64,000 bases of DNA from Prorocentrum cordatum (taxonomy: Eukaryota), in contig CAUYUJ010000159.1 of assembly GCA_963575745.1 (NCBI GenBank), positions 1-64,000 of the forward strand, read 5' to 3'. A model generated the notes under the pieces. It was not told the origin of the DNA, did not search any database, and saw only the letters and a program-made list of their open reading frames with translations. Below are positions 1 to 42,770 of the stretch, piece by piece (within the stretch, counting starts at the first letter, position 1; each line of letters begins with the position of its first letter). A program made the translations under genes and the position numbers.

Positions 1-3000
1 TACAACGGTCGATGATGTGAAAAACAATATGTTCCAGTTTATAAAAGAAGAGATCACATTCGACTTCTTCGTTGAAACGTCCTGGCAGTGACACGGAAGG
101 CATCACCGTGTTGCCTGGTTTATCCCAGGCTCGACATTCTCTACACGAGTCACAAATGCCTTTGATCAAACTCAAACGGGTTTCACCCAGACCAACCTTG
201 GTTAGAATCATCCGCATTTTTGGCTCCTTGGCATGAAACCATCTCAGGTGGAGTTTGCGGAGTTCTCGCTGCACTACAGCTGGGTCGAAGCTGCGCAGGT
301 TTTGGAGGCTGAGCTGAACGCCGAAGCGAGTCCAATCAGGGAGCCTTGGCCTTGGCCGTGGCTCTGCTTGAGGCTGCGGCGGTGGTGGAGGATCTCCTCC
401 CTCCATGCGTCCGCGCCTTGCTGCAACTTGTGGCAGTCTACGGTGATCGTCAGAGCTGCCAGCGCCACTGTTGCCACCAATAGCCCCGTCGGCTCTGGTG
501 ATGTCATGGCTGCTGGCGCCTGCGGTTGGATCGCCCTCACCAGGCCGTGGCGGCCTAGGCGCACGTATGCGCGCTCTCGCGGCCGGCGCCGCTTTTGCGG
601 CTGGCGCCGCTTCTGCGGCTGGAGCCGCTTCCGCGGCTGGCGCCGCAGGAGCGGCTTGTCCCGCCGGACGCGGCTGGCCAAAGTTATCCGGCAGTTTCCA
701 TTTTTCGGCAAATCTGCATTGGCCAGATATCTTGGTGTGGTGAGGATTGCTCTTCTGATATTCCTTCTTACAGCTTGGACAGTCCCAGTAATACGGTTCA
801 ACATCATACCACCGACACATCTTCGGGTCCCTACTGTGCTTTGGTGATTGCTTGTAGTTGTTGTCCACACAGCCAGGGCACCCAAGACCGCCAGGTGGTG
901 GTCGACAGATTTCTCCGTTTGGGTGTCTCCGAATTGTTGGGTCGTCCAAGTCGTAGCCAGCACTGTTTGTTACGAACGCATAGCTGCGTTCACGATTCGC
1001 GAATGGATCGCGACCGTAAGCAAACAGGTCTTTGGCGATTTGCACCGCATCAACGATCAATGACTGCATTCTGTAGGTATACTGTGCCGCCCTTGCTAGT
1101 TCTTTATTACAAGCATTGGCGTGCACATGATTACCTGGACAACGCTTGCCTCTGAAAGGTGCCAACAACTCTTCTTTGTTTGCCATCATCTGTGTTGGCT
1201 TGCGGATGTATTGTCCAAATGAATCTTTGAGACCAGTCGTGCACTGATCAATGATTGTTTGGCAAGTGACCTTGCGTTGTGCCAGTTCTTTCCATGGCTG
1301 GATCTCATCCACCCACGTGCCCATTGGTTGTTCCCTGAGGAAGAAACGTCTTAGGTCGTCTTGTAGTAGAGCGACTGTTCCACAGAACGTGATATGAGGC
1401 AGGTCCTCTTTGTGGTGTTTAAGCCACGTATCATGATTGACTTGTGCGTTGAAGTAAGAAGGGAGTCCAGTAGTTCTGCAGCTTGGCTGCAGAATCGTGA
1501 TCTTGACAAAGCAAGTCTTGAGGTAGTGGAGGACTGCTCTCTGTACTTCCGAGTTTCCAAGGTCAACCATAGATATCTTGTCAAGGTTCCCGCCTGACGA
1601 GAGTCCCCTCTTGAAGGCTAATATGGATATACCACCCTTGCCCCCACATACTTCAAGCATGTCCACTTGATTGTTTCTGCCGTAGCATAATGACTGGACC
1701 ATCGAGAAGACATCAGCATGTGAGTCAGCGGGTTGCCCCGCCGGTAACATCATGAAAATGTCCTCTGATTCGCTGTCCGAGTCCGAGTCGTCAAGAGGAA
1801 CGTCGTTGAAATATGTGGAGCAGTCAAGCCCTTTGAGGTCCTCTCCACAGTCGTCGTTACCGTCTTCCACTTTCTTCGGAACTTTCTTCGGTTTGATGCC
1901 GGCTTCTTTGTCAGCTTTCTGCTTTTCTTTCTGTTTTATCCTGGCATCAGTGGGCAACGCGGTTTCCGCGGAGAGATCCGCTGCGGAGGAATCCGCTGTA
2001 AAGTCAGGAAATGGCGGAATTTCAGGAAGGTTGTTGGTGGGTCGCGTTTGGCAACGCTCAATCGAAGGGGGAGGAGATCGATCGTCATCGACGATCGTCA
2101 CACGCTTTGGGCGTGGCCTTCGCGACTCACCATTGCCATGAAGAACTGGAGCCGGAGGCTCCCAGTATAGCCGAGTACTGATGTTTGTAACCCCATCAGG
2201 TAATGGAGCTACATAATTGTACCCAGTTGGCTGATCCTGGATCCTAATGTCTTGAACGATCTTGTTCGTGTCCAGGTCGGTCGTGACCCTACGAACCACA
2301 TGGTCCCATTGAGGGCCCTTCTGTGGACATTGAACGTAGTGTCTGACCTTTTTGTCAACGCGTGTACACACACTGAGGTGTACCGCACTCCGCTCATTCC
2401 TGAACATGTTGGCTTTATCGAGTTGATCAAGGAAGCGTGCAATAATAATAGCCAAAGTTTTATACCGAAACTCGGCACGTTGCTGATCTTGGCCATACCA
2501 ATCCAAATCATGCTCCTTGTGTGATCCACAAGTACATTTCCATAAGTGTATCGGTATATGAGGACAAGATGTAGCAACTTGTATATAAGAACCACTGGGA
2601 TATTTACTGGATCGGTCAAACTTAATGCCGAAATGACAGAGTCTGATTCGTATAACGCTTAGCTTCAAATCTTCAATAACATCTTTGATCGGACCCTGTT
2701 TCCAGAAATACCCGGGTGGCCCCAGGATAACTATCTGCATTCTCAGAGCACGCGCTTTGATCAGGAGATTTTGTATACGTTGATAATGTGGTCCCGCCCT
2801 CTTTCCTGGAGTACGAACGTACCAATCAGAGGTTGTGGCCACCCACAACATATTGTAGTCTCCTGCCAACAAATTTCCCAAATACTGTGTTCCAGTTGAA
2901 GTCATTACCTCATTATGGGTAATCCGGTCGCATATATATCCACGGGTTCGGAGTTCAGCGCAAGCTGTACGAATATCTTCGATGACGAGGCATTTTGAAT

Positions 3001-3106
3001 GGTATTTTTCTTCTCGGGCCTCAGCGCGGCCAACGTATGTCGCGAGGAGGCCGGTATTCGGCTTCTCTTCGCAAGCGAGCGCCGCCGGCGCGCCCGCCTG
3101 CCCCCG
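1..3106 (-). CDS. pol continuation (not in ORF track, open to window edge): degenerate DNMT-like domain, C5 DNA methyltransferase-like domain (~1050-1670), two CxxC-H-C fingers (~710-883), integrase N-terminus (1-265)
   Basis: Manual translation, in frame after the TGA at 3107. DNMT: MLEVCGGKGGIS / LQPSC / REQP / DQC..G....RKPT / CPGNHVH / AAQY. Integrase: LHLRWFH...CREC...FNEEVECDLFFY...FHIIDRC. Confidence 0.85.
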
Positions 3107-4377
3107 TCAGAGGGGCATGCTGTTAGCGGATGACTCCGCAGGCGTCACTGGTGCGGCTGCGCTCACGATCTCCACGCGGGTTGGCCCCGCAAGGTCCGTC
3201 GAACCTCCGCCCGTGCAGCTTGGTGGTGGTGGCGGTGTCGCGGGTGGCCCCGCTTGGTTCACAGGCGACCAATTATTCACCGCCTCCTGGACTGCCCAGA
3301 AAATCTTAGACTTCAGGGCATCCTTCATGTGTGGCCAGGTCCCTTCAGGACACTGTTGGCCTTTCCACCAGCTGTCGAGCGTCCTGTCTACGATCGCACG
3401 GGTCGTGTCCTTCAGGAGCTGCTTGTCGAGATATGGCTCGACAATGAACGTATCAGTCGTAACGGTCATAGACTGTCCCATCGCGGGTTGCCCCGCTGTT
3501 ACCCCAGCGGGTGACCCCGCACCTACACCGGCGGGTGGCCCCGCATTGACGGAGTCCTCGTCGTTCTCCGTCTCGGTGTAGACGTCATGACTACTGCGGA
3601 TTGTGAAGGTGTTGGTGACCGTCTGGCTTTTAGCCCCGTCATACAATCCGCAGGGAATGGCTAGGTGTCCTGAGGGGGTCTTCTTTGCCCTCAGGACCTT
3701 GGCGCCCTTCCCCAGCTTAAGAGTATACTCCCCGCTGGGGAAGATAACCTTCTGGAAGCCTGGCTTTAGCACGATAATTGTGTCACGTGCTTCCATGGCA
3801 CTCAGGCCCCAGATGGCTGGGAGGTTTGCACCTGAGCCCTCTGCGATGTTGGAAGCATACTCCTCGATGCGGGGGCTTGCCTCATTGGCGTATTGCACCC
3901 CTATCTTGAAGTTGCCCATTTTCCGACAGATCGCAGCACCCTCACCTACACCATTGATGTAGAGGGTTTTGCTCAGTGTGCATATGGCCGGTCTGTGATT
4001 GTACCTGGCCATAACCTCCTGAAAGGTTCGTGCTGTATTAGCTCCGATGATGTTCACGTTGGAGCCAATGTCTAGCATGAACGATATGCAGGGCATTCCG
4101 TCTTCGTCGGGGAAGAATGTCCCTGTCCGCGCCGCCAGAGCCATCGTACCATGGCCATCAGGATGGTGCGTAATCTGTGAACCGAGCGTGCCTTTCAGTA
4201 GGCGTTGTTCCAGCACCCACTGGCTCATTGTTAGCTCGGTGCACCATATTTGCTCATATTGGCGGCGCTCCTCCACGGTGATAGGTTCCTGTTCAAGGAC
4301 CCAGTAATTCGCGGAGAGTGTGGAGGTCCACTCACCTCCTGGCGGAAGCGTATCCGTGATGTCACGTGTGTAAAGAT
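3107..4377 (-). CDS. Retropepsin-like aspartic protease segment
   Basis: FMLDIGSNVNIIG (~4061-4078), flap-like INGVGEG, and LPAIWGL. Confidence 0.75.
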
Positions 4378-7300
4378 GAATAAAAAAAAAATAACAAAAA
4401 TAAGAACAAACAAAATGTAAGAAAATAAAAAAAAAATAAAAAAATAAAAAAAAAAAAAAAAAACAAAAAAAAAAAAAAAAAATACAAAACATAAAAAAAA
4501 ATAAAAGAAAAAAACAATAAATAAAACAATAAAAATATAAGATAAAAAAAAAAACAAAATAAAAAAGTAAAAAAAGCATGCCCTTCCGTGTTGATCATGA
4601 AGGTATTGTGGAATTGTGCTGCTTCAGCGCTTTCCGCACTGGCCCGGCTCCTAGCACTCACCGGGCTCTCTGCACGTGAGGTTCTGGATACACCTCCGCT
4701 CCTGCCGCTCCGCCTGATATTGGCCTCCATTGCTCTCAGGAATCCTGGATTCGGAGGCCCCGTTGCGGGTGACCCCGCTTTGGCGGCGGGAGCCGCTTCG
4801 GCGGGTGGCCCCGCTGCTGGGGGCCCCTGTGCTCGAAGCGTAGGCAGGATTGGCATCTGGATGCCTTGCTCTGGCGCTGGCCATGGGTGGGTCTGTGCAG
4901 CTGGGGCACGTGCGGATGGCTCCGCCGAGGCGGCTCGAGCCTCTAGTGCCTCCACTGCTTCCCGCAGCCGGCGCAGTTCCCGAGCATCCACCACATACCT
5001 TTCCTGCTGGCGCGCCTGTTCTGACTCAGCGTCGCGCTGTCCAGCATACGGAAAGTGTGCTGCGATTATGCCCGGCCCACGACATACAGCGCAAGGTGCC
5101 TCGTTTGGCGTACCTGGCCGCTGATTGCGGACGTGCTGCTGTGCAACACGATCCCAGCATATATCGTGGAAGAAATGTCCACATGCCAGTCTCCACACCG
5201 TGGTGCCCATCTCGTAGGGGTCCATACAGATCGGGCACTGTGTGAAATTGTAATCTGAAATGACTGGCGGGGGCACGTCGGGGCGAGTCCGAGCCTGACG
5301 CTCGAAAGTAGTTTCGCCCTCCCGATATGGCGTCGGTGGTGGCAGTCTGTCTATCTGTTCAGCGGGTGGCCCCGCACCTGCGGGTGTCCCCGCTTGGTTC
5401 TCACGCTCGATCCTTCTCTGGATAGCGCGCTGTTGGCGCAGCCTAGCGTTGTCCCGAACCTGCTGCCTAGATGCCAGTATCGCTTGCTGCGTGTTGTGCA
5501 CGTCGCGAATGTAGTCTGGCATGCTGCCCAGAGCGGCTGGCACCGCGAGACCAGCTGGCTGAACTACGGTCTCGGGGTCCGTCGGCGTGGGCATATAGGC
5601 GTAGTGCGGCAAAGACTGCGCATCGACTGCTCGTGTAAACTGCAAACGATACATCTCATTGGCCAGATTTCGAGTGTATTCGTTCGCAGGTGGCCCCGCA
5701 ATCATAGGAGTGTTATTTACTTGCGCGTAGTACTCCGGGTACATCGGCGCATCCATGGCCGGTGCCTCTGCTGGTCCATGATTGTCCCATCCATATATTG
5801 GGTGTGATGCTATTCCTGGAATAAACACCTGCCGATATGGATTCGTGGGATCAGCATTCGGAGCATCATCAGAAGTCCAGCTCCACAGAGGCCGAAAGTC
5901 GCCATGATTCGTAACATCTATGTTGCGGTTCCGCAACAGGCTGGGCACTCTATCAGCTTGTTGATGTAAAAAGGTAGCTTGTGCCCTCAAAGTGGCCGCC
6001 CTCCGTTCATAGTCTGCGCCCTGCTGACTGTCAGCGGGTGGCCCCGCGTGTGCGGATGACTCCGCAGGCGTTCGCTCGGCGGGTGACCCCGCAGCCACTC
6101 CTCCTTCACTACCCCTCGGAGTGCCGAAGGGAGTGGTCGCCCGGAGTGCCGCTGCGAGCGTCGGATTCCCGCGAATCGCCTGGAGTCGTTGCCACAAACT
6201 GTTTTCGCTCGTTTCGGGCGGCGGAGTCCGATACGGCGAGCCACCATCTGATCCGCTCATGGGGACAAACCTCGCGCCTCCAGCTTGCTGCGGAGGGCGT
6301 TGTGGTTGTGTCCCTAGGATGCCGGGTGGCCCCGCAGGAGGGCGCAGGTTCCTCTGCTGTGCATCTTGGATACCTGCGTGAACCGCCCACGGGTCAGCTC
6401 TATATAGCTGATCAGTCAGCCCAGAGACGTCAGCTGATGTCAAATGGCTGTTGAGAGCGTGGACCCAAGACTGCTGGTCCTGCCGCCACGGGGATGCTAC
6501 CGTCGCCACCGGTGTGACTACTTGTTGCCACGACCCGTCCGAGGTGTCTACTGCGGGTGTCCCCGCACCTGCGGGTGGCCCCGCACCTGCGGGTGGCCCC
6601 GCTTCAGGCATGGCCTCGTCCTCCTGGGCATTCATCATGAGGACTGTCTGTGTCTCAAACGGTCGTGGAGCAATATCTTGCTCGGTCATGACCAAGTTGA
6701 ATGGACGACCGTCCGTCTTAGTCCAGCCCTTGAGGTACATAGCATGATCTTCCATTACACCTACAGTTTTATCACACATTTTGAGTGGCAGGTAGTCATC
6801 AGTGCGAATCCTGTCCGCGGGTTGGCCCCGCTTCCGCGTCTTGTCATAGAACAGCGGATTGCTCCAGGCTTCGCCGACCCGATACTTCGCAATGCTCACG
6901 ATCTGCATGATGTGATCGGGCGGTATACGTCCGTCGTGGCCCCTTGTCATGACTATGTCATTTGCTGATCTCCATAGAGAGAAGCCACTGGACAGCATCT
7001 TGTTGATGCTGCAGAATATGAGCACCTCCGAGTCAGGACGGATGCCCGATTGAATCCTCGGGTCGCCCGGGAGGTAGGGGCAGCCATGCACAAATTGGCG
7101 CCCCCCCTTCCTCTTCGGGTTGTCCTGTGCGAGGCATGACAGGCCATTAGCAAGAATGTCCTTGACATACTCCCACTGCGCCCCGTGGATGAAATATACT
7201 GGGTCGTCTGGTTCTTTCATCCATGTTGTGATCGGCTTGAACAACGACTCGGGACAGTGGACGCCTGGACTGCTGTGGCCATTCGTAGCTCTGATGAAGT

Positions 7301-8336
7301 ACTGTGGCCTGCGGTTCGTTGGTTGAAACCTTTTCGGCAGCAGCAGGCTATCATCAACGCGCTTCATCTGGAGCCTGCCCTTCTGCATGCCGTGATGGTC
7401 AATTATCTCACAGCAGTTTAGCAGCACCCAGTACACGAATGACGAGTGGGGCCTGCCCTTGATCAGCACTTCGTGCATGTCACGATAGTGTTTATACTGA
7501 TCATTTTCCTGCCAGTTTGCCAGCAGATCGTCAATGACAACCCAGCCGTCGTACGGATCGAAAGTGCTGACCTTCTCGAAGTATCGGTTGTGTTTGTCCT
7601 TATAATATGGACTGTGGCGTAGAGCCGTCGAAAACCAGATCGATATCTTGGTCATCTGCTCCTTACTCGGCAGGGTCGGATCAGCGCCGTTCTGTTGCAT
7701 GACCTTCAGGAGCGATTCATTATGCTGCGCAACACGTAGTGGCGGCCTGTCTCGCAGCATGTTTCCCACCTTCTGTTGTTCGCGCTCCCAGTCGTTGTGA
7801 CACTTGAAATTACGACGAACCGGACAATTAATGACTTCATATCGGTCCGTGTCGTCTGGAGTGACTCGTGGGTTGATGGGCTGCCTCGGGCCTCTGTCTA
7901 CAATGCCTTGCCAATACAACTTGCATTCCAAAGGAATGACCCTCAGAACAGACATTATTGGCTGCCCGCTTGCGGGTGACCCCGCTAATGCAGCCGGCGG
8001 CGCCTTGACGGGTGGCCCCGCTAATGCAGCTGGCGCCGCTTTAATGGGTGGCCCTGCAGAACCTGCGGCTGACGAGGCAGCTCCTGCAGATGACTCCGCG
8101 CCAGGGTTCTGGCGACCTTTGTCAGCAGCTGCATCATCAGTCAGTTTCTGTTGGTCGCCAAACTCTTTGAGGACTCTGAAGCGTTCTTCTCTGGAGAGAG
8201 TGCCTTCCGCGGGTGTCCCCGCAGTTACGGCTGGCGCCGCTTTAGCGGGTGGCCCCGCAGGAAAACAATAAGAATGCGGAAAAAAAGATAGAACTACAAA
8301 AAAAAAAATTAAAAAAAAATAAAAAAAGAAAATCAA
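4362..8336 (-). CDS. Polyprotein segment with Tpt1/KptA-like RNA 2'-phosphotransferase (~6900-7650) and RING-H2 finger (~5080-5237)
   Basis: Tpt1 motifs in order: STALRH, DGWV, KGRLQ, IRATNGHS, IHGA...GL, GRQFVH, SGIR, SANDIVMTRGHDGRIPP. RING-H2: CPIC...CGHFFHDICW...CAVC. Both ORF ends fall in A-rich patches. Confidence 0.85.
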   Translation of the reverse strand: MIFFFYFFLIFFFVVLSFFPHSYCFPAGPPAKAAPAVTAGTPAEGTLSREERFRVLKEFGDQQKLTDDAAADKGRQNPGAESSAGAASSAAGSAGPPIKAAPAALAGPPVKAPPAALAGSPASGQPIMSVLRVIPLECKLYWQGIVDRGPRQPINPRVTPDDTDRYEVINCPVRRNFKCHNDWEREQQKVGNMLRDRPPLRVAQHNESLLKVMQQNGADPTLPSKEQMTKISIWFSTALRHSPYYKDKHNRYFEKVSTFDPYDGWVVIDDLLANWQENDQYKHYRDMHEVLIKGRPHSSFVYWVLLNCCEIIDHHGMQKGRLQMKRVDDSLLLPKRFQPTNRRPQYFIRATNGHSSPGVHCPESLFKPITTWMKEPDDPVYFIHGAQWEYVKDILANGLSCLAQDNPKRKGGRQFVHGCPYLPGDPRIQSGIRPDSEVLIFCSINKMLSSGFSLWRSANDIVMTRGHDGRIPPDHIMQIVSIAKYRVGEAWSNPLFYDKTRKRGQPADRIRTDDYLPLKMCDKTVGVMEDHAMYLKGWTKTDGRPFNLVMTEQDIAPRPFETQTVLMMNAQEDEAMPEAGPPAGAGPPAGAGTPAVDTSDGSWQQVVTPVATVASPWRQDQQSWVHALNSHLTSADVSGLTDQLYRADPWAVHAGIQDAQQRNLRPPAGPPGILGTQPQRPPQQAGGARFVPMSGSDGGSPYRTPPPETSENSLWQRLQAIRGNPTLAAALRATTPFGTPRGSEGGVAAGSPAERTPAESSAHAGPPADSQQGADYERRAATLRAQATFLHQQADRVPSLLRNRNIDVTNHGDFRPLWSWTSDDAPNADPTNPYRQVFIPGIASHPIYGWDNHGPAEAPAMDAPMYPEYYAQVNNTPMIAGPPANEYTRNLANEMYRLQFTRAVDAQSLPHYAYMPTPTDPETVVQPAGLAVPAALGSMPDYIRDVHNTQQAILASRQQVRDNARLRQQRAIQRRIERENQAGTPAGAGPPAEQIDRLPPPTPYREGETTFERQARTRPDVPPPVISDYNFTQCPICMDPYEMGTTVWRLACGHFFHDICWDRVAQQHVRNQRPGTPNEAPCAVCRGPGIIAAHFPYAGQRDAESEQARQQERYVVDARELRRLREAVEALEARAASAEPSARAPAAQTHPWPAPEQGIQMPILPTLRAQGPPAAGPPAEAAPAAKAGSPATGPPNPGFLRAMEANIRRSGRSGGVSRTSRAESPVSARSRASAESAEAAQFHNTFMINTEGHAFFTFLFCFFFYLIFLLFYLLFFSFIFFYVLYFFFFFLFFFFFFIFLFFFYFLTFCLFLFLLFFFYSSLHT

Positions 8337-9645
8337 CTAAAACAGAGCCCTTGTCCTCCTTAGCCTTCGCCCGCTTCTGCCCCCGCTCCGACCTCACCCA
8401 GCTTCGGCTTCGGCTGTCGCTTTCATATCCAGTGCCGAACCTGGTCGAGGTGCAAGGCTGGTGTGCAGTGTTGAGTCCATCACCTCGGAACGCTGCCCTT
8501 AGCTTGTCGCGAGCGTCGTCCTTGGACATCGCCCTTGTGGTCTACTGGAGCATCGATCGATGGCTCCACAAAGACCTCTTCCCTCTCCTGTCAGCATAGA
8601 CCAGGAGGATCTGCCACTCAGGGTCGTCCATCTTGGCATCGCTCTGACCTTCGGCCCGTACCCCCTGGCGTGTCTTCGGGGCTCTTTTTGGACGAAACAA
8701 CAAGAAATAAAAAAAAAAATAAATAAGCAAAAACAAAAAAGGAGCCTTTTTGCAGGAGTCGGTGACGACGAGGAGTCGGCTCTAGGTCTTGGAGGTGGTC
8801 TGCTGCTCTTGCCTGGTCGTGGACCAGGAGGGTCTCTTGGAGGGCCTTCTGGCTGGCCATGGTCATGGATGACCTGCCTCATCTGGTCGATGTCGGCAAA
8901 CACCGCGCGAATGGCCACTTTATTTTTTTTTTTTTTTGTTGGGTTTTGGGGGCCATTCTCATGGCCGGTAAGACACCCTTCGTGGATGAGCCACTTCTGC
9001 GGCCGAAGAGCTGAAAAAAAAAAAAAAGTAACCAGCAAAAAAAACAGAGCAAAAAAATAAAACAAAGCAAAAAAGCAAACAAGGGCAAAAGCAAAAAAAA
9101 AGGCAAAAAAAAAACAAAGCTCTTCCGTCAGGGAATGGATTCTCTGAACCGTCTTCCGCCGCCCACTCTTCTTTTAGCTCAGTGCGGTCAGTGCCGGCGG
9201 CGGACCCGGCAGCAGAGGCAACGTCTATCCACTCGTCCGCAGATCCAGCGGCTGGTGCTGCTTCTGCGGGTGACCCCGCTTCCTTGCTGGATTCTGCGGG
9301 TGACCCCGCTTCCTTACTGGATTCTGCGGGTGACCCCGCTTCCTTACTGGATTCTGCGGGTGACCCCGCTTCCTTATGGAATCGGCGGTTCCATTCCTTG
9401 AGGCGGTGGTCATTGGGAAGCTCTGCCCAATTTTCCTTGACGGTGTTGGCCACCTCTTCGGTCATAGGGACGGACGCGATCGGCCTCTGTGATGCGCTTT
9501 CCTCCTCCAGGAACCTCTTTGTTCGGATCATGGACGTTACCCGCGTCGTCTCCATGAGACCAATTCCACGGGGTTTCTCCATGGTGAGGGCTCCTGGAGG
9601 GGCGGTCCATCGGACACCTGCGCATGTGGCCTTTGAAGGGCTCAC
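8242..9645 (-). pseudogene. Disrupted low-complexity linker of element A polyprotein
   Basis: Frame changes near 9450, in-frame TAG at 8542-8544, A/T-rich patches, and a 30-nt tandem repeat (KEAGSPAESS) at 9260-9375. Confidence 0.55.
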
Positions 9646-12232
9646 ACTGACATACTTGCTTTCTGTACGTTTTGCGGTCAGTGATGATCTCCTGCTTCTT
9701 TGCCCTTTTGTCCCAGGCCTCTGGCGTCTTGGTCTTGCCGCCCTTGGTACGGATTATCGCGCCAGTCTCGTCCCTTTTGGCACAGTATTCCTTAGAATAC
9801 CAGTGCCGAAGAGTATCCATAGAGTAGCCGGGGTACCATTGGATGTACCAATCCGGCACCTGTTGAGCAGATACTCCAACGGAGTGCTCAGTGCTGTATG
9901 GATAGCCCGATTCATCATGCGTAGGGCGTCTAGGAGCTGAGCGGCTCCTTCCTCGGGCTGGCCCCGCTGACGCACTACCACGTGTCACTGGCCTTTGATC
10001 GTCATGCTCTGAGTCTCGGGGAGGCGACGGTCGCCTGTCCCTCTTGGCGTACCGCATGTCCTCCGAGTCCTCTGAGCTGTCCTGGACCATGAACTCGTTT
10101 TGATACGGGCTTCTGAAGTATCCGATGTCATTTAACTGCTCCATCGAGAGGTCGTTAATGTTCATTTGATCGCAACCTTGCATGAATACATCCATAGACC
10201 AAGCGGGTGGCCCCGCGGTTGTGTCTAGCATCTCTTCGGCGGGTGACCCCGCTAGAGCTTGGAGTGCTGTAAGCATCTGAGATGCTGACATGTTCGAATC
10301 CAAGTATGGACGTAGACGGGCAACTCCTGGGTGCGACAGCAGTTCGCTCATCGTCATCTGCTGCTGTGCTGGCGCACTCAAGAGTCGGATTGCTTCTGAA
10401 ACCTGCTCGTGGAGCATGTCGTTATAATCTTCTTCGGATTCTTCGGAGTCGGAATACGCGGGATGGCCCCGCATTTCGTCATCGGCGTCTCCCATCTCCG
10501 AGCCAGCCCACGACGGATTTTGCAGCAACGGCATGCCAATCACTTGTGGGGCCAGCGCGGCGGTGAGTTCTTCCTCTGTTGCCGGGACAGTCTCGGCTTC
10601 GGAGACCTCGTCACCGGCGGGTGGCCCCGCTGGAAGACCAAACCAAGCATTGTACGCAATCTCATCGACCTCGTCCCAACCGTGGAACTCGTCGAAGAGG
10701 GTCACTGCGTAGTCTTCCAGGGCCACGGTTGCTTCAGCATAGCGGGCCATCACGTAATACGTGGAGGAGCCCGCAGCGGGAGCCGCTTCTGGATTGACGT
10801 AAAACTCGTAGTCAATGTAATCTATGTCATCCATAAAAGAATTTTGAGCCAAATGTACGGATCCCTTTCCTTTCCCTTTCGGGCATTGATCGCGCAAGTG
10901 CTCTGTGCTGCCGCATGTATGACACTTCATAGTATTACCAGAAGCGTCCCTAGGGTTGCCCCTCCGCCCCTTTCCCTTACCGGAGGTCCGCCTGTGACCC
11001 TGACCTTTGCCTCCGATAAGAACTTCTTCAAAAGCCATATCAGTTAAGGACGTGAGGAAAGCAGTAATACCCCTACCATGCATACGGCGTCTGCGACCCC
11101 CTTTACCACGACCCTTTCCAAATTGTTTGAAATGTCGGCGTACTGCACGTCTCACTTTCCTGACTGGTTTCTTCATAAAGCGCCTCCAACGGCGTTTTGA
11201 TTTGCGATAAGCCATAAAGGCGGCTTCCGCCCTTTGCTGTTCAGAAAGGTGAGTGTCGTCCGCTGGATAGTCATTACCAGCAGAGACTATTCCATTGTGC
11301 TCATCGTCAGATGAAGTATCTGTGTCAGTGCCAGATTCAAACGGTGAGGGTGGCTGAAACCATTGAGCGGATGACTCCGCTTGGCCCCAGAGGGTTGTGC
11401 CCGAGGGCGGGCTTGCAGTGTAGGCGGCGCCTGGCGAGTAGTTCGACCAGGCGTTTGCCTCAGCTGCCTCTGCCGATACCTGGCCGGTCTGCCCTAGAAG
11501 GGCAGTGGCCTCGTTGGGCATATCGGCTGGGTCAGCCCAGGGATTTGGCTCGCCAGGACCAGCGGGTGACCCCGCAGTCGTGGCATAGACACCTGCATGT
11601 GAGTGGTGCCCTGTGAAGATACCCGCTATGTTGCCAGGAGAGCGCTCGGCGACATGTCCGTAGTTCCTCATCCTGGTCATCAGCCTGTCATAGTCTGCTT
11701 GTGTTCGGGGCATCTGATGATTGAAGGGCTCAAGCAGGTGTTGGGCTCGTGACGCGCCAACGCCTAACGCTCTGAAGAGAATCAGCGTTAGGATCTGAAA
11801 GTTGGGGATGACAAAGCCAACAGAGTTAGCCACGTCACGGGCCATCTCGAATCGAGCTAATACCGAGTCGATTCGCTCGCCCCTTTCGACGCGGAAGTCG
11901 ATAAGGGCCGTGCCAGAGTTGAGCTGGCGCTCATCTTCCAGATTTTCAAATTTGGTGCTCAGTAAGTACAGTATGTAGGTTACTGCATCCGTTGGCTGTC
12001 CATTGACAGTTACACCATAATTGATGATCTGGGAGGGGACCTGCATGGCGATACGACGAGCAAGACCTTGAAGGCCTCGTTGTAGTGCTGCAGCTTGTTG
12101 TGGTGGTGTCATATTGCCGCACGTTACGTTTAACCATGCATGTACTTCGCGAACATATTCGCGAAAAGGCGTAGTACCGGCAGGGTCCCATGAAGGGCCA
12201 GTAGTACGCGTGTCGTCCATCCCCTGCCGCAT
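9410..12232 (-). CDS. gag: Gag-like protein with CCHC zinc knuckle (ORF track 9410..12808; real start probably downstream of the LTR/PBS)
   Basis: CHTCGSTEHLRDQC (CX2CX4HX4C) at ~10883-10925, preceded by basic GKGKG-rich segments. Helical capsid-like N-terminus (FREYVREVHAW...). Confidence 0.8.
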   Translation of the reverse strand: MRQGMDDTRTTGPSWDPAGTTPFREYVREVHAWLNVTCGNMTPPQQAAALQRGLQGLARRIAMQVPSQIINYGVTVNGQPTDAVTYILYLLSTKFENLEDERQLNSGTALIDFRVERGERIDSVLARFEMARDVANSVGFVIPNFQILTLILFRALGVGASRAQHLLEPFNHQMPRTQADYDRLMTRMRNYGHVAERSPGNIAGIFTGHHSHAGVYATTAGSPAGPGEPNPWADPADMPNEATALLGQTGQVSAEAAEANAWSNYSPGAAYTASPPSGTTLWGQAESSAQWFQPPSPFESGTDTDTSSDDEHNGIVSAGNDYPADDTHLSEQQRAEAAFMAYRKSKRRWRRFMKKPVRKVRRAVRRHFKQFGKGRGKGGRRRRMHGRGITAFLTSLTDMAFEEVLIGGKGQGHRRTSGKGKGRRGNPRDASGNTMKCHTCGSTEHLRDQCPKGKGKGSVHLAQNSFMDDIDYIDYEFYVNPEAAPAAGSSTYYVMARYAEATVALEDYAVTLFDEFHGWDEVDEIAYNAWFGLPAGPPAGDEVSEAETVPATEEELTAALAPQVIGMPLLQNPSWAGSEMGDADDEMRGHPAYSDSEESEEDYNDMLHEQVSEAIRLLSAPAQQQMTMSELLSHPGVARLRPYLDSNMSASQMLTALQALAGSPAEEMLDTTAGPPAWSMDVFMQGCDQMNINDLSMEQLNDIGYFRSPYQNEFMVQDSSEDSEDMRYAKRDRRPSPPRDSEHDDQRPVTRGSASAGPARGRSRSAPRRPTHDESGYPYSTEHSVGVSAQQVPDWYIQWYPGYSMDTLRHWYSKEYCAKRDETGAIIRTKGGKTKTPEAWDKRAKKQEIITDRKTYRKQVCQCEPFKGHMRRCPMDRPSRSPHHGETPWNWSHGDDAGNVHDPNKEVPGGGKRITEADRVRPYDRRGGQHRQGKLGRASQ

Positions 12233-12580
12233 GTATCCCACAGCACATCCCATTATTACCCACAGAATGCCGAAGATTGTTATCTTGATCCAATGCATGT
12301 GCATTTCGGCTTCGGTGATTGGTTTGGGCTGTGGTTTGTCAGGCTCTGGCGTGGTAGCCGTGAGGCGCCTGACCGGCACGGGATGCAGGTGGCCCCGCTG
12401 CGAGTAGCCCCGCAGGGTGACCACGTTCTCGATCGAGTTGCCGATTGGCATCTGGTGGAAGTCGGGAGTGAAGTAGCGCAGTGCCGTAGGAGAGAGCGTC
12501 TCGAGTTCGCGGGTTGCCCCGCTAGCTCGATCGCGGACTGGCTCCGCTCCTCGCAGAGCCGACGCAACATGGTATTCCAC

Positions 12581-12601: not shown

Positions 12602-12912
12602 TGTGCCGTGGATTACAGGAATCAGAGCGAGAGCCAGCCACACGAGAGTGTAGCCAGCTCCGCTACCAAGTCGAAAACAAGCTGGTAAGCTTAGGTATGT
12701 GTTACGCATTAGGCGTTGCCATATCCCAGGCTTTGGCTCATAGCGCATGAGCAAGAGAGCGAGACGAAGCATGGGATCTGGAGTAAAGAGTAGGATGGGC
12801 ATCGTCAATGGAAAAGGATGTTTTCCGATCTCGGATGCAAGTAGTGCGCCTCAGTGAGGCACAGTCACATATCTGGCCGGGCCCGGCTTGAGCCAGGCAC
12901 GGCAGCGGTACA
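12602..12912 (-). repeat. Putative 5' LTR of element A
   Basis: On the minus strand it begins TGTACCG and ends CGGCACA (6/7 inverted termini), followed after 3 nt by TGG. The second LTR is not in the window, so this is unconfirmed. Confidence 0.5.
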
Positions 12913-31014: not shown

Positions 31015-31269
31015 TGAGGAGCGGCATGGGCGCACAGGCGGCGGAGTGCGGGCCGGCGACGACGGCCCCGGTGGCGACGGCTGCTTGCCCCGCGCTGCCG
31101 CATGGCTCAAGAGGAGAAAGGCCCCCCTCCTCCCTCTCCTCAGAGGCGCGGGGGAGGCGCGGGGGGCCTACCCGGGGTCCGAGGGCCCGCGAGGGCCCAT
31201 AGGGCCCGAGGGCGGCACCTGGAGGCCGCTCTCGAGGCCCTGAGGGGCCGAGGCTCCAGGTGAGCCTCA
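31015..31269 (+). repeat. 5' LTR of element B
   Basis: Identical by eye to 43229-43483, with TGAGG/CCTCA inverted termini. Confidence 0.95.
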
Positions 31270-31271
31270 CG

Positions 31272-31289
31272 TGGGGGCTGCTCCGGGAA
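31272..31289 (+). promoter_or_regulatory. Primer-binding site, tRNA-Pro type
   Basis: TGGGGGCTGCTCCGGGAA, 2 nt after the LTR, closely resembles the MLV tRNA-Pro PBS TGGGGGCTCGTCCGGGAT. Confidence 0.8.
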
Positions 31290-31320
31290 ATCGTTTCCCG
31301 AGCGGGCCCGGGCCCGGGCG

Positions 31321-34300
31321 ATGGCGTCGCCCCAGCGCGCGCCTCGCGCGGAGCTGGGCGACGCCGACGCGGGCGACGTCGAGGCGGGCGCGGAGGCTGG
31401 CGCGCCGTCGGCGCAGGCGGCCGCGGCCCCAGCAGCGGCGGCGGCCGGCGCTGGCGTGGAGGTCGCCGGCTTCGAGGGCTCGCTGCTGGAGGCGATCGCC
31501 GACGGTGCCGTGGCGCAGCCGCCGCTGCTGGCCTTCGGCGCCTGGGTGCAGTGGCGCGCCGGCCCAGGTCGCCGGCTTCGCACTGCGCCCGCGATCGCGG
31601 CCAGCGAGAGCGCGTTGTGGCGGAGCACCATGGAGGCGCTGCACGGCCAGGACTGGCAGGCGCGGCTGCGCCAGCAGGGCCCCGCCGCGGCGCGCAGCCC
31701 CGCGACGCCAGCGGCTGCGCAGCCGCCGGCGGCCGACGACGTCCTGCGGCTGCTGGACTCGCCGGCGCGCGCGTCCGACGCGGGCTCCGACGCCACTGGA
31801 GCCCTGTCGGACGGCAGCTGGGGGCCGCTCACGGACGACGAGGTCCTGGAGCGGCTGCTCAAGGACGTGGAGCCGCACGAGTCGATGCGCGACTTCGAGC
31901 GGCGCCTGCTGCGCGCGCGGGCTGTGCTGACGCTGCGGCGGCAGGCGGTGCCGGAGGGCGCGGTCGAGTTCGGCATGAGGGAGGCCCGCTTCCTGGTGGA
32001 GGCGCGGGCCCACGGCGAGGGCGTGGCGGCCGCGCTGGAGGCGAAGCTGCACGCCGTCCTGGACGTCGAGACGGACGACGCCGACGAGGACGTGCGGGCG
32101 CTGATGGACCTCCTCGCGGTGGTGCGCGGCGGCGGCAGCGCTCGCGACGCCGTGGCCGGCGGGGCGCCGGCGCGGCCCCCGCAGGACCGAGCCCCGCCCG
32201 CCGGGCCCGCCGGCGTCGGCGTGGCGCCCGCGGGGCCACCCGCCTTCCCCGCCTTCGGCGAGGACCTGCCGCCGGGGCTTCCCCCGCGGGGCGGGCCGAC
32301 CGAGGCGGGCCCGGCGGGGCCCAGCTTGGCGGCAGCGCTGCAGGGCCTCGCGGGGGCGCTCGGCCAGCGGGCCGACAAGAAGTCGTCCACGATCCAGGTG
32401 AAGCCGCACTACAGTCTGCCGACGCTCGGCGACGGCGACTTCGACGTGGACTCGTTCGTGGAGGAGTTCGAGGAGATGGTCGGGCTGGCCAACGACGGTG
32501 CGGGGATGTCGGCGACGGAGATGGTGCGTGTGCTGGGGACCTGCCTGAAAGGCTCGCGTCAGCGGGCTTACAAGGTCGAGCTGCAGCAGGCTCGCCGGTC
32601 AGGCAGGCTGTCGGCGGATCCCGACGAGGTGTACCAGAGCCTGAAGGAGCGGCTGATGGAGTTCAAGGAGGGCTTGCTGGAGAAGCAGCAGCGGCTCAAC
32701 GCCGAGTGGAGGACGCTCTCCCGCGGCAAGATGAGCGCGCTGGAGTTTCAGGCGACGTTCGAGAACATCGTGGCGGAGATGGGGCTGGCTGGGATGGGCA
32801 AGTCCGATCGCGACCTGCTGCTCAGCTACCTGGCGCTCATCCCTCCCTCGCACCGTGCAGAGGTGCTCAAGGATCGCCGAGTGTATCAGCGCTCTGGCGC
32901 CCAGCCCGAGGTCCGCGGCGTCGAGACCTGGAGGGAGGCCCATCGCGTGCTGCTGAAGCTGGAGGAGGCCGAGAGCTCGGCCAAGGCGCTCGTCGCGGCT
33001 GTGGGCTCGGACTTCGCGCCCAGCCCGGGCGGCGGCGGTGGCCGGCGTCGGCGCGGTGGCGGTGGCGGCGATCAGGAGCCGCCCGAGGTCGGCGCTGTTG
33101 GCGGCTCCGGCGGCGCCGGCGCTGAGGGTGCTGTGAAGGTCTGCTTCCAGATGAGGGACAGCGGCACGTGTGCGCGTGGCGACGCCTGCAGGTTCTCGCA
33201 CGACCGGGCTGCCATCGCCGAGTCCCGGAGGACCAAGAAGGACGCTACCGGGCCGAAGGGCAAGGGCGCGGACGGCAAGAAGGGCAAGGGCTCGGACGAC
33301 GGCGGCAAGGGCGGCCTCAAGTCGCAGCTCTGCCTGCAGTTCCTCCGGGGTGCGTGCAGCAAGAGCGAGAAGGACTGCAAGTTCAGCCACTCGGGTAAGG
33401 CAGCTCAGAAGGTCATTGCAGCGGTTTACGCTGGCGCGGCCGCAGCTAAGGCGCCGCCGCCAAGCCTCGGCAGCGCGGGCTCCCCCGGCAGCGGCCAGGG
33501 AGCAGCGCCTGCGGCCGAGGAGGCGGCGCGGCCCGCAGCCTCTGGCGCGGCGCCGAAGGTGCAAGCTGCGGCGGGGGGCAAGCTCGAATGGGTGCGACCC
33601 TGTGGCGGCGTCTTCGGCCCGAGCTACGACCTCCCGCAGGTGAGCGTCGTCAGGGGCTCGCCCTCGCCCGAAGGAGCTCTGAAGGACCTGGACCAGATCC
33701 CCGCCAGCGCCTGGACGCAGGTGCAGGAGCCCGACGACGGGTACCACTACTTGTGCCACACGCATGTCTACGGCCTCAGCATCAGGACGCTCCTTGATGG
33801 CGGGGCGGTGTTCTCCCTGACGTGGGAGGCGACGATCGTCAGCATCATCAACAGCGCGATCGCGGAGGGCAAGTCTCCTGAGGACCCCGACTGGCCGATC
33901 GCGGGCCTGATGCACTGGGGCCGGGACTCGAAGGCCTCGTCGGTGGCGGACAAGGGCGACCTGAAGATTCGTGGCATGGTGGACCTGCGCCTGGCCTTCG
34001 AGGGGCTGGATGGTACGCGAGTGGTGCGTGTGTTTCGCCTTCGGCTTCTGCGCGGGGGTTGGGACAGGCCGTTTCTTATCATTCTTGGGGCCCCAGCGCT
34101 CGATGCACCCCCTCTGGGGATCGGGCACCGGCCTACGCTACAGGGCCACTACTTGCCGGGGCTGGGCATCACGGTCAAGCGTGCGGAGGCCGACGCGGTG
34201 CAAGCGAAGCTGTTGACCATCTCGGCGGTGTTCTCAGAGTGCGATGCCGATAAGCGTCGAGGTGAGGATCGTCGGGCTGCCAGTGCGGTAGGATCCCTGG

Positions 34301-42400: not shown

Positions 42401-42770
42401 GGTGAACTACCTGGAGGCGGCTCGAGCTCGAGGCCTCACAGTCCGTTTGGTGTTCAGCGGCCGTGACAAGGCCCTGACCAACAACCAGGGGCCGCGCCTG
42501 CAGCGGCTCCGAGCCTGTGGGTGCGAGGTGCGCGCTCACAAGGGATCGCGGCTGCACGCCAAGGTGATGATGACAGAGCGCGAGATTGTGCTGGGCAGCT
42601 GCAACTTCACGACTGCCAGCTTGGGCAACGTGGAGCGCGGGGCCAGCCTGCAGGAGCTGTCCGAGGAGACGGTGCTCGAGCAGAAGGAGTGGTTCGAGCA
42701 GCTGTTCGAGGCGGCGTCGCCCTTCAAGGACGGGATCGGCGAGGTGGTGCCTCCGTCGCCGGCCCGGTGA
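36440..42770 (+). CDS. Element B ORF2 (-1 frame; ORF track 36051..42770): integrase, C5 DNMT-like domain, RT fingers/palm (YIDD), hydrophobic segments, SWIM finger, PLD-family nuclease
   Basis: Integrase: H..GGH...WPGL...CWAC, VVIDV...SDRGKEF...AERSH, GPF. DNMT: VEIFDGVG...LPC...FEGP. RT: SPWGS...RTVVDYRMVN...MDGARGF...LQLGP...YIDD. SWIM: CTC...CKH. PLD: LHAKVMMTE...GSCNFT...NVE. Confidence 0.9.

Follow-up and report, generated by a model that had tools for sequence, protein, structure and literature searches.

A minus-strand segment that encodes, in a single ORF, a domain of the Tpt1/KptA family of NAD-dependent 2'-phosphotransferases and a RING-H2 finger is very likely a conserved accessory module of a very large LTR-type retroelement family of Ty1/copia order in Prorocentrum-like dinoflagellates. 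We analyzed a stretch of 64,000 nt from Prorocentrum cordatum (positions 1 to 64,000 of contig CAUYUJ010000159.1; hereafter, the window). On the minus strand, the element reads Gag(CCHC), linker, Tpt1, a largely unstructured-looking region of ~550 aa, RING-H2, a protease-like part and a UGA stop; past this stop, a domain of unknown type and a possible methyltransferase-like domain precede integrase, reverse transcriptase and RNase H, the last parts being read from relatives. The window holds >12.6 kb of the element ahead of the integrase core, and the reverse transcriptase lies beyond it. The features are, in the order of the element:

12652–12671, minus strand: 20-nt block ACTTGGTAGCGGAGCTGGCT, a possible primer-binding site, identical in the window and in the metagenome relative L001
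9410–12451, minus strand: Gag-like ORF with a basic tract and a CCHC knuckle; its start is set at the first in-frame Met past the primer-binding-like block
8341–9473, minus strand: linker between Gag and Tpt1, in three reading frames in the window copy, with four tandem AGSPA hairpins at 9266–9369
8259–8343, minus strand: T-rich insert of 85 nt, directly ahead of the first hairpin of the Tpt1 ORF
4362–8336, minus strand: Tpt1-RING ORF (P0001), 1324 aa from stop to stop, with the first Met at residue 128
6939–7646, minus strand: Tpt1/KptA domain (Pfam PTS_2-RNA), residues 231–466 of P0001
5079–5240, minus strand: RING-H2 finger (C3H2C3), residues 1033–1086 of P0001
4369–4584, minus strand: T-rich tract, with T making up at least 70% of the sense strand, at the junction of the RING and protease-like ORFs, with a frame change across it
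3107–4374, minus strand: protease-like ORF, with LDIGS at 4061–4075 and a TGA stop at 3107–3109 followed by CGG
2–3106, minus strand: start of the pol-type ORF, in the frame of the protease-like ORF, with an unknown domain, a possible C5-methyltransferase-like domain, Cys-rich fingers and the integrase N-terminus, where the window ends

The presence of a Tpt1 domain, proposed in the preliminary description from motifs seen in the sequence, was confirmed by a match to the Pfam profile PTS_2-RNA (PF01885) of 59 bits, against a gathering cutoff of 26 (E 8.1e-16; profile positions 6–177 of 177). The span given there, 5080–7650, runs exactly from the start of this domain (7646–6939) to the end of the RING finger (5240–5079). 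Its motifs were also correctly placed, as judged from an alignment of 24 sequences with canonical Tpt1: LRH corresponds to R240-H241, KGRL to K319 and R321, and GRQFVH to R413. The tetrad R240, H241, R321 and R413 falls in invariant or nearly invariant columns of 15 canonical Tpt1 proteins, with which K319, R349, H354 and R433 likewise align; L001, L002 and P0007 have the complete tetrad too. The catalytic tetrad of ApeTpt1 is Arg14-His15-Arg63-Arg116, plus Lys60, and in solved Tpt1 structures the residues equivalent to K319 and R433 touch the transferred phosphate (PMC10622864, partial text). A sequence search of the PDB retrieved human and mouse TRPT1 at E 2e-12. The AlphaFold model of the domain (pLDDT 79.7, pTM 0.77) was compared with the PDB using Foldseek, and all 22 matches with E ≤ 0.001 were Tpt1/KptA proteins, with alignments of ~250–260 columns and target-normalised TM values up to 0.71 (best match 7yw2, E 2.2e-11, target TM 0.70). 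Taken together, the alignment and the predicted fold place this domain in the Tpt1/KptA family as a true, if divergent, member that has the RNA lobe, the NAD lobe and a full Arg-His-Arg-Arg tetrad.

The relatives of this domain with solved structures are cellular Tpt1/KptA proteins (PF01885), such as TRPT1 from human and mouse (7yw3/7yw2) and those from Clostridium thermocellum (6e3a) and Aeropyrum pernix (8tg4). Unlike them, the domain is embedded in a retroelement polyprotein, is preceded by a family-specific helical extension of ~90 aa (residues ~141–230), has ~35–40 extra residues inserted into the RNA lobe, between its LRH and KxR motifs, and scores lower (59 bits vs 150–190 for canonical Tpt1 proteins). 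Because of the large insertion in the RNA lobe and a score far below that of canonical Tpt1, an altered choice of substrate is possible. Additionally, HGT, present in at least 90% of the aligned sequences, is replaced by HGA in the window subfamily. The divergent RNA lobe with its insertion, the low similarity and the HGA change would also suit a Tpt1 fold that is kept for binding NAD, ADP-ribose or RNA, or for ADP-ribosylating proteins, and not as a nucleic-acid 2'-phosphotransferase. We consider this very unlikely, given that the tetrad, K319 and R433 are retained across lineages that are ~40% identical and that pure binding would not need them.

Among the family fragments covering each site, R240 was retained in 13 of 14, H241 in 12 of 14, R321 in 30 of 31 and R413 in 44 of 49. 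Likewise, dN/dS between L001 and L002 was 0.18 over 330 codons of Tpt1 and 0.84 over 137 codons of the upstream linker. Both Tpt1 and RING have been passed down in the lineage of the element, with purifying selection acting on them.

The RING-H2 finger was detected in the same ORF, as previously proposed, with three Pfam models above their cutoffs in P0001: zf-C3HC4_2 (30.4 bits, cutoff 27), zf-RING_2 (30.2, cutoff 27.3) and zf-RING_11 (29.5, cutoff 27). The set of ligands is full, C1034-x2-C1037-x14-C1052-x-H1054-x2-H1057-x2-C1060-x21-C1082-x2-C1085, and L001 contains the same eight ligands with identical spacing (zf-RING_11, 33.8 bits); this conservation is that of two sequences, because only in L001 is the whole module present in one ORF.

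The Tpt1-RING segment was found in other copies of the element, including L001, in agreement with the earlier view that it is not an insertion private to one copy. L001 is collinear with the window from Gag through the protease-like part, and encodes Gag, Tpt1 (PTS_2-RNA, 61.8 bits), RING and the protease-like part, in this order, in one uninterrupted ORF of 2653 aa; its identity to the window is ~34–42%, and 34% over 1062 alignment columns for the collinear Tpt1-RING ORF. Five database proteins besides L001 link Tpt1 to Gag or protease pieces: in P0005, Gag (94% identical) leads directly into the N-terminal part of the Tpt1 ORF; pieces of Gag and Tpt1 are fused in P0004 and P0172, and pieces of Tpt1 and protease in P0008 and P0014. 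We recovered three metagenome loci as well as 26 shorter relatives, with 39–99% identity, from several contigs of Prorocentrum cordatum and from other sources, and a search of representatives retrieved seven at E ≤ 1e-30 and 59 proteins at E ≤ 1e-10. The distribution of these sequences indicates that the element is a dispersed multi-copy family.

In the window, T-rich spacers and frame changes lie between the ORFs, and this gives them the look of separate cistrons, as would occur if Tpt1-RING were a host gene landed in one copy or a separate gene in a same-strand dinoflagellate array. Against this reading, L001 holds all the parts in one ORF, the five additional proteins tie Tpt1 to either Gag or the protease-like part, and every ORF contains the same in-frame hairpin; we therefore regard it as extremely improbable. 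The sharing of this hairpin among segments, noted in the preliminary description, is real: motif GCGGGNNNNCCCGC occurs 27 times in the window (0.29 expected), 26 of these being within 1728–12522. In a relative, the stems contain only changes that still pair on the sense strand. These comparisons support that Tpt1 and RING-H2, in one ORF, are an integral and conserved part of a copia-order retroelement.

T-rich tracts also occur in the linker region, at 9005–9120 and 8259–8351, and the linker is broken into several frames: P0005, which is one continuous ORF, maps by tblastn onto frames -1, -2, -3, -2 and -3 of the window. The 85-nt insert falls exactly between ...KGS and AGPPA..., which are neighbours in P0005, and it changes the frame because 85 is not a multiple of 3. 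We considered this insert as a canonical intron and discarded it, since it has GT at the start but no AG at its 3' end. L001 is devoid of the T-rich tract at the junction of RING and protease, where it retains a single frame. T-rich inserts and frame changes interrupt the window copy at its domain junctions, and it is probably unable to make a single polyprotein of the L001 type; with these frame breaks, it may be dead.

The location of Tpt1-RING between Gag and protease, as originally described, holds, although both flanking labels are softer than was implied. The Gag-like ORF shares 53% identity with L001 over 635 columns and 94% with P0005 over 463 residues; no capsid profile from Pfam matched it, and the label is suggested by its position, its basic tract and a CCHC knuckle at 10883–10924 in which C-x2-C-x4-H-x4-C is visible (zf-CCHC, 18.3 bits, E 0.0024, under the cutoff of 20.8). 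The protease-like ORF shares 34–42% identity with the last part of the L001 ORF, and had no match in Pfam nor, with a four-sequence profile, in the PDB; here the label is suggested by the D-x-G-S motif, the AEGSG...LPAIWGL motif, its position and its collinearity with relatives, with LDIGS and AEGSG...LPAIWGL being kept between the window and L001.

The pol-type ORF shares 40% identity with P0177 and 37% with P0178. Within the window, the integrase N-terminus contains an H-x4-H...C-x2-C (HHCC) finger, and its first catalytic Asp lies near position 64. A C5-methyltransferase-like domain is possible at 992–1723, as suggested by motifs recognized by eye and an Atlas lead (0.88); the fold prediction for this region was unusable (pLDDT 38.6).

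The gene order of the relatives and a sub-threshold match to RVT_2 point to a copia-like element. P0178 matched RVT_2 with 24.1 bits (E 3.2e-5), under the gathering score of 31.6, and its sequence reads HHCC, D..D-x35-E (DD35E integrase), RVT_2 and an RNase H-like end, with the integrase preceding the reverse transcriptase; the Pfam profile rve did not match P0178 in spite of its DD35E pattern, and the RNase H-like end is homologous, by eye, to L001:2-694. With a Gag-like and a protease-like part followed by integrase, reverse transcriptase and an RNase H-like end, the element has the order of Ty1/copia (Pseudoviridae), which it also resembles in the sub-threshold CCHC knuckle, the weak RVT_2 match, the DD35E integrase with its HHCC finger (in P0177 and P0178) and the TGG-initiated block resembling a primer-binding site. 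Conversely, the dinoflagellate element is very large, contains at least two, possibly three, accessory enzyme domains and ~26 in-frame GC hairpins along its length, and standard profiles other than RVT_2 fail on it or fall below threshold.

L001 is otherwise only ~35–50% identical to the window at the protein level, yet it shares the 20-nt block ACTTGGTAGCGGAGCTGGCT, and its TGG-containing block is located ~340 nt downstream of the end of pol. This block may be the complement of the 3' end of an initiator tRNA (TGGTAGC...); there was no tRNA gene within the window for comparison. A short LTR-like stretch precedes the block, up to ~12896; the 3' end of the element falls beyond the window.

The published activities of Tpt1 are on RNA 2'-PO4 and on 5'-PO4 of RNA or DNA (PMC6182162, PMC6333775, PMC12170183, partial texts). 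Together with the intact tetrad and the purifying selection, they make plausible the role advanced in the preliminary description, namely that the element repairs or caps its own RNA, its tRNA primer or its cDNA ends and ubiquitinates host restriction factors. Made within the Gag-side polyprotein, Tpt1 would sit with the nucleic acids of the element and would use NAD+ to attack a phosphate on them. It could strip internal 2'-phosphates, which are expected to hinder reverse transcriptase, from the very long genomic RNA or from the tRNA primer; alternatively, it could add an ADP-ribose cap to 5'-phosphate ends of RNA or cDNA. The RING finger would recruit a host E2 and ubiquitinate a nearby target; this target might be Gag or a host factor, and even the ADP-ribose mark itself is conceivable. 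In its most elaborate form, the element would run its own end-marking of nucleic acids, with Tpt1 ADP-ribosylating RNA or cDNA ends or clearing 2'-phosphates from a template of ~15 kb or longer, RING acting on the mark or the particle, the ~26 in-frame GCGGG-NNNN-CCCGC hairpins serving, in the sense-strand RNA, as signals that direct packaging or recruit an enzyme, and the possible C5-methyltransferase-like domain providing a third activity; we hold this full scheme to be rather unlikely.

The same module might instead be aimed at the host as a counter-defence, with Tpt1 acting on host RNA, tRNA or NADP(H) and RING marking a restriction factor for degradation. RING E3 ligases are a common viral means of removing host factors. 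Conservation and selection would fit equally well, and Tpt1 also takes the 2'-phosphate of NADP(H) (PMC10622864, partial text). However, the sequence gives no pointer to a host target, and the occurrence of the enzyme in one polyprotein with Gag, in L001, places it with the element's own RNA, so we consider counter-defence an unlikely alternative.

Retrotransposons rarely carry enzymes outside the standard set. A full-text literature search found no report of a Tpt1-RING module in retrotransposons and, as far as this search goes, the combination of Tpt1 and a RING ubiquitin-ligase finger in a retrotransposon protein was not previously described. Known accessory domains in retrotransposon polyproteins include a chromodomain, a DnaQ-like exonuclease, a helicase and a DNA methylase, which are similar to Tpt1-RING in being non-essential extra domains inside a retroelement polyprotein; Tpt1, ADP-ribosylation and RING have zero occurrences each in the available part of that text (PMC6338049). 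Closer in host, the SymbioLINE-Dnmt and SymbioDIRS-Dnmt3 elements of Symbiodinium are likewise dinoflagellate retroelements with a captured host-type enzyme that modifies nucleic acids and keeps its catalytic residues, and this capture of a DNA methyltransferase merited its own report; they are, however, LINE and DIRS elements with DNMT, as opposed to a copia-order element with Tpt1, and the Copia elements of Symbiodinium lack a DNMT domain (PMC5890265, partial text). The available part of that source does not mention Tpt1, phosphotransferase or RING.

A selected and conserved Tpt1 in a retroelement would offer a concrete setting for asking about the role of Tpt1 outside tRNA splicing, its presence in taxa without the tRNA-splicing pathway being treated as an open point (PMC6182162, PMC6333775, PMC12170183, partial texts). 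Paired with RING, it could also connect nucleic-acid ADP-ribosylation to ubiquitin. DELTEX RING-DTC ligases ubiquitylate ADP-ribose on nucleic acids (PMC10810221, partial text), a parallel that is conceptual, an idea limited to the pairing with a RING E3; Pfam found no DTC domain in the Tpt1-RING ORF.

Dinoflagellate genomes contain very divergent copia-order elements that are mostly missed by standard profiles, which matters for repeat annotation and for gene models. Incidentally, the Prorocentrum gene models P0003, P0004, P0008 and P0014 are chimeras that include pieces of the element.

In the first 13 kb of the window every long ORF lies on the minus strand, with the following arrangement:

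12850–9410, minus strand: Gag-like ORF (P0002), with a CCHC knuckle
9473–8341, minus strand: linker with a broken reading frame
8336–4362, minus strand: Tpt1-RING ORF (P0001), 1324 aa
7646–6939, minus strand: Tpt1 domain, by its PTS_2-RNA match
5240–5079, minus strand: RING, with three RING models above cutoff
4594–3107, minus strand: protease-like ORF
3106–2, minus strand: last ORF, past a single TGA and in the same frame as the protease-like ORF, running off the window start
992–1723, minus strand: possible C5-methyltransferase-like domain (residues 462–705 of ORF 3106–2), from motifs found by eye

Residues 231–466 of P0001 matched the Pfam family PTS_2-RNA (E 8.1e-16, 59 bits; gathering score, 26), and three Pfam RING models exceeded their cutoffs over residues 1033–1086. 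Since these residues convert to window positions 7646–6939 and 5240–5079, the span 5080–7650 proposed for them in the preliminary description is exact. The element family is highly divergent, and standard profiles mostly miss it: in the Gag-like ORF the CCHC knuckle alone was matched, just under its cutoff (18.3 vs 20.8 bits), no family in Pfam or NCBIfam matched the protease-like ORF or the last ORF, and a four-sequence profile of the protease-like part retrieved no PDB match at E ≤ 10.

By sequence, human TRPT1 (E 2.3e-12) and mouse TRPT1 (E 1.9e-11) are the solved structures nearest to the window Tpt1, which has in common with them FIRATNGHS/LIRANQGHS, the HG motif and GRQFVHGCPYLPGDPRIQSGIR/GRTHIHLAPGLPGDPGIISGMR. 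We aligned the window domain with eight members of the element family and 15 canonical Tpt1 proteins from a representative search. Columns that are invariant or conserved to at least 90% hold R240-H241 (LRH), K319 and R321 (QKGRLQ vs KxRF), R349/H354 (IRAxxGHS), H384-G385, R413 (GRQFVH) and S430-G431-x-R433. According to excerpts of a study of the Aeropyrum enzyme, the catalytic tetrad is Arg14-His15-Arg63-Arg116, with Lys60 and Arg133/134 as additional conserved phosphate contacts (PMC10622864); the window residues show this same pattern, and therefore LRH, KGRL and GRQFVH, singled out earlier as tetrad candidates, are the right motifs. An AlphaFold model from this alignment (mean pLDDT 79.7, pTM 0.77) retrieved only Tpt1/KptA entries among its 22 Foldseek matches in the PDB at E ≤ 0.001 (22/22), the best being mouse 7yw2 (E 2.2e-11, target-normalised TM 0.70), and beyond these entries the next matches drop to E 0.065 and worse. 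The window protein contains a catalytically complete Tpt1 fold together with a complete RING-H2 finger. The Tpt1 domain differs from cellular Tpt1 in a confident helical N-terminal extension of approximately 90 residues, an insertion of approximately 35–40 residues between LRH and KxR, the replacement of HGT by HGA in its subfamily, and a much lower profile score than the 150–190 bits per domain of the cellular proteins. Reverse transcriptase, integrase and RING were absent from all 25 of the scanned representative matches, which are more distant Tpt1 relatives. In P0147 (1513 aa), a protein from the representative search, a canonical Tpt1 (123 bits) is fused to a C-5 cytosine DNA methylase domain (108 bits), which makes it a second instance of a nucleic-acid-modifying enzyme linked to Tpt1.

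The Tpt1-RING segment could be an independent host insertion absent from other copies of the element, a question that we addressed in protein and contig collections. An alignment-based scan of metagenome contigs yielded three loci, one of which, L001 (8780 bp), contains a single ORF of 2653 aa, uninterrupted and with an open 3′ end. By tblastn, L001 is collinear with the window over Gag (12313–10526, 53% identity), the Gag C-terminus and linker, a single 1062-column segment from Tpt1 through RING (7934–4908, 34% identity) and the protease-like part (4300–3665). Its ORF matches PTS_2-RNA (61.8 bits) and RING (zf-RING_11, 33.8 bits), the latter with 8/8 ligands in spacing identical to that of the window. 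Similarly, P0005 (903 aa), encoded on a 3.4-kb contig filed with a bacterial bin, matches the C-terminal half of Gag at 94% identity and then continues with no intervening stop through residues 1–120 of the Tpt1 ORF. Gag and Tpt1 pieces are also joined in P0004, and Tpt1 and protease pieces in P0008 and P0014, all three gene models of Prorocentrum cordatum as named by their source. In the divergent P0172, from the representative library, a piece of the Gag C-terminus (46% identity) is joined to a piece of the Tpt1 N-lobe (39%). There are 26 shorter relatives, with identities of 39–99%, and in the exhaustive representative search 602 proteins matched at E ≤ 0.001, of which 59 reached ≤ 1e-10 and seven ≤ 1e-30, the closest being short fragments. 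Single-protein scans with the Tpt1 domain found no relative in metagenome and genome contigs, nor did alignment-based scans in viral and genome contigs. Between L001 and another metagenome relative, L002, dN/dS is 0.18 for Tpt1 (330 codons) and 0.84 for the upstream linker (137 codons), whose alignment is less certain. Among family fragments covering each site, the tetrad is retained in 13/14 (R240), 12/14 (H241), 30/31 (R321) and 44/49 (R413), and the exceptions fit decaying copies. The presence of the segment in L001, and the linked pieces in P0005, P0004, P0008, P0014 and P0172, do not uphold a host insertion. Because of the L001 ORF, these joins, the size of the family, the dN/dS values and the site retention, we conclude from the sequence comparisons that the Tpt1-RING module is an inherited and selected part of the element lineage.

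The collections also contained sequences of doubtful labelling. A EukProt set labelled Pyramimonas sp. includes approximately 20 Tpt1-family fragments (P0010, P0013, P0015–P0031) of 40–99% identity, one of them 99% identical to the window, which suggests a mislabel or dinoflagellate sequence within this set; in several of the fragments, conserved histidines are replaced by Arg. The published P. cordatum models P0003, P0004, P0008 and P0014 splice element pieces to unrelated sequence or to each other and are annotation chimeras; examples are a Tpt1 N-lobe fused to protease and a PPR-containing model of 2202 aa, with Tpt1 at its end, named glucan synthase by one source. Eighteen sequencing runs hold part of the stretch, none of them at least half of its words; no RNA run is among them, and they have no bearing on expression.

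The preliminary description had also argued, from hairpin motifs shared by all segments, that these form one unit. We confirmed these motifs: where shuffles predict 0.29 occurrences of GCGGGNNNNCCCGC, the window has 27, of which 26 fall inside 1728–12522. The hairpin is 14 nt long (GCGGG-NNNN-CCCGC), with approximately 26 copies on the minus (sense) strand. Within four coding stretches of the element (12313–9410, 8219–4600, 4300–3107 and 3103–2), 20 in-frame sites code for Ala-Gly-x-Pro-Ala, using GCG in 20/20, GGG in 20/20 and CCC in 19/20, whereas outside the hairpins their shares of the respective codon families in the same ORFs are 25, 15 and 18%. Because the three codons are nearly fixed at the sites, the constraint, as judged from codon usage, is on the nucleotides and not on the peptide alone. 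In L001 (599–8494) the hairpin takes the form GC[G/A]GG-NNNN-CCTGC (n = 17) and its third stem pair is G.T in 12 copies and A.T in five, pairing on the sense strand only, which suggests that the hairpin is formed by sense-strand RNA or single-stranded DNA. Only 6/19 window sites lie within six residues of an L001 site, and hairpin positions therefore turn over. These hairpin findings support the earlier view that the segments together make up a single unit.

A 20-nt block, ACTTGGTAGCGGAGCTGGCT, is identical in L001 and in the window (12671–12652), and lies approximately 340 nt downstream of the L001 pol end. Its start, TGGTAGC, has what we take to be the look expected of an initiator-tRNA primer-binding site, and directly downstream of this putative site both the window and L001 have a similar hairpin whose stem change is compensated. 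At the other end, the integrase is cut off by the window edge at its first catalytic Asp, so the pol part was read from two relatives collinear with the last ORF, P0177 (38% identity, E 1e-91) and P0178 (37%, E 5e-54). The continuation of P0178, read from its sequence, shows an H-x4-H...C-x2-C finger and a D...D-x35-E integrase core, then a match to RVT_2, the copia-type reverse transcriptase profile (E 3.2e-5, 24.1 bits, under the gathering score of 31.6), and an RNase H-like end homologous to L001:2–694. The order Gag, protease, integrase, reverse transcriptase and RNase H, together with this weak, sub-threshold match, supports the earlier classification of the element as copia-like. The sole PDB sequence match of P0178 at E ≤ 1, an amidohydrolase, was discarded as chance (E 0.17).

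The possible C5-methyltransferase-like domain shows EVCGGKGG, QPSC, REQP and QYIRK by eye, and an Atlas lead points to phage-type DNA methylase clusters (0.88), as does a range approximately 90 residues downstream of it (0.78). The domain had no Pfam match and nothing below E 0.24 in a PDB sequence search, and its fold model from a three-sequence alignment was unusable (pLDDT 38.6). If the domain is real, an element of copia order would carry a methylase-like domain, whereas Symbiodinium Copia elements are without a DNMT according to excerpts of PMC5890265.

Within domains the window ORFs are intact (1146, 1324, 495 and 1035 codons). Three T-rich tracts, each with a sense-strand T content of at least 70% and all absent from P0005 and L001, lie at domain junctions, and the frame shifts across each:

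9120–9005, minus strand: T-rich tract
8351–8259, minus strand: T-rich tract
4584–4369, minus strand: T-rich tract

An 85-nt tract (8343–8259) is inserted exactly between residues that are neighbours in P0005; it begins with GT and was rejected as a canonical intron because it is without AG at its 3′ end. The tracts could be damage, or separators splitting the polyprotein into cistrons, perhaps by serving as polypyrimidine tracts where a spliced leader is added. The Gag-Tpt1-RING-protease side is divided from the pol side by a single in-frame TGA (3107–3109), the stop of the protease-like ORF, followed by CGG and a GC-rich stretch. We take this UGA-CGG to resemble the known readthrough context of plant viruses and alphaviruses, and the TGA may be a programmed readthrough site.

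In the open-access main texts searched we came across no retrotransposon described as carrying a Tpt1/KptA or RING domain; the paper on DNMT-retrotransposons never mentions Tpt1, phosphotransferase or RING (PMC5890265), and an opinion article on accessory domains of retrotransposon polyproteins includes neither Tpt1 nor RING (PMC6338049). We rate the element as an LTR-type retroelement carrying a new accessory module. In L001, an intact relative, the Gag side of the translated polyprotein includes both Tpt1 and RING, and the two are conserved under selection. According to excerpts of the literature, Tpt1 enzymes transfer internal RNA 2′-phosphates to NAD+ and some ADP-ribosylate the 5′-phosphate ends of RNA or DNA (PMC6333775; PMC6182162; PMC12170183). 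The most economical reading would be that the element applies this chemistry to its own very long RNA, tRNA primer or cDNA ends. Tpt1 might clear 2′-phosphates, which we would expect to hinder reverse transcriptase, or it might cap 5′-phosphate ends. The RING would supply E3 activity on Gag, on a host factor or on the ADP-ribose mark. The last idea is taken from DELTEX ligases, which, from excerpts of PMC10810221, ubiquitylate ADP-ribose on nucleic acids; however, these have a DTC domain, which is absent from the window element protein. A host-directed role of Tpt1-RING in counter-defence fits equally well in most respects.

The window also contains a second, unrelated retroelement-like region on the plus strand (36018–42770 and 31264–37623; approximately 70% GC). 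One of its ORFs matches Integrase_H2C2 (42.7 bits) and, weakly, rve, and has a PLD-like domain at its C-terminus (PLDc_2, 48.7 bits); a long ORF that overlaps it encodes a CCCH zinc finger.
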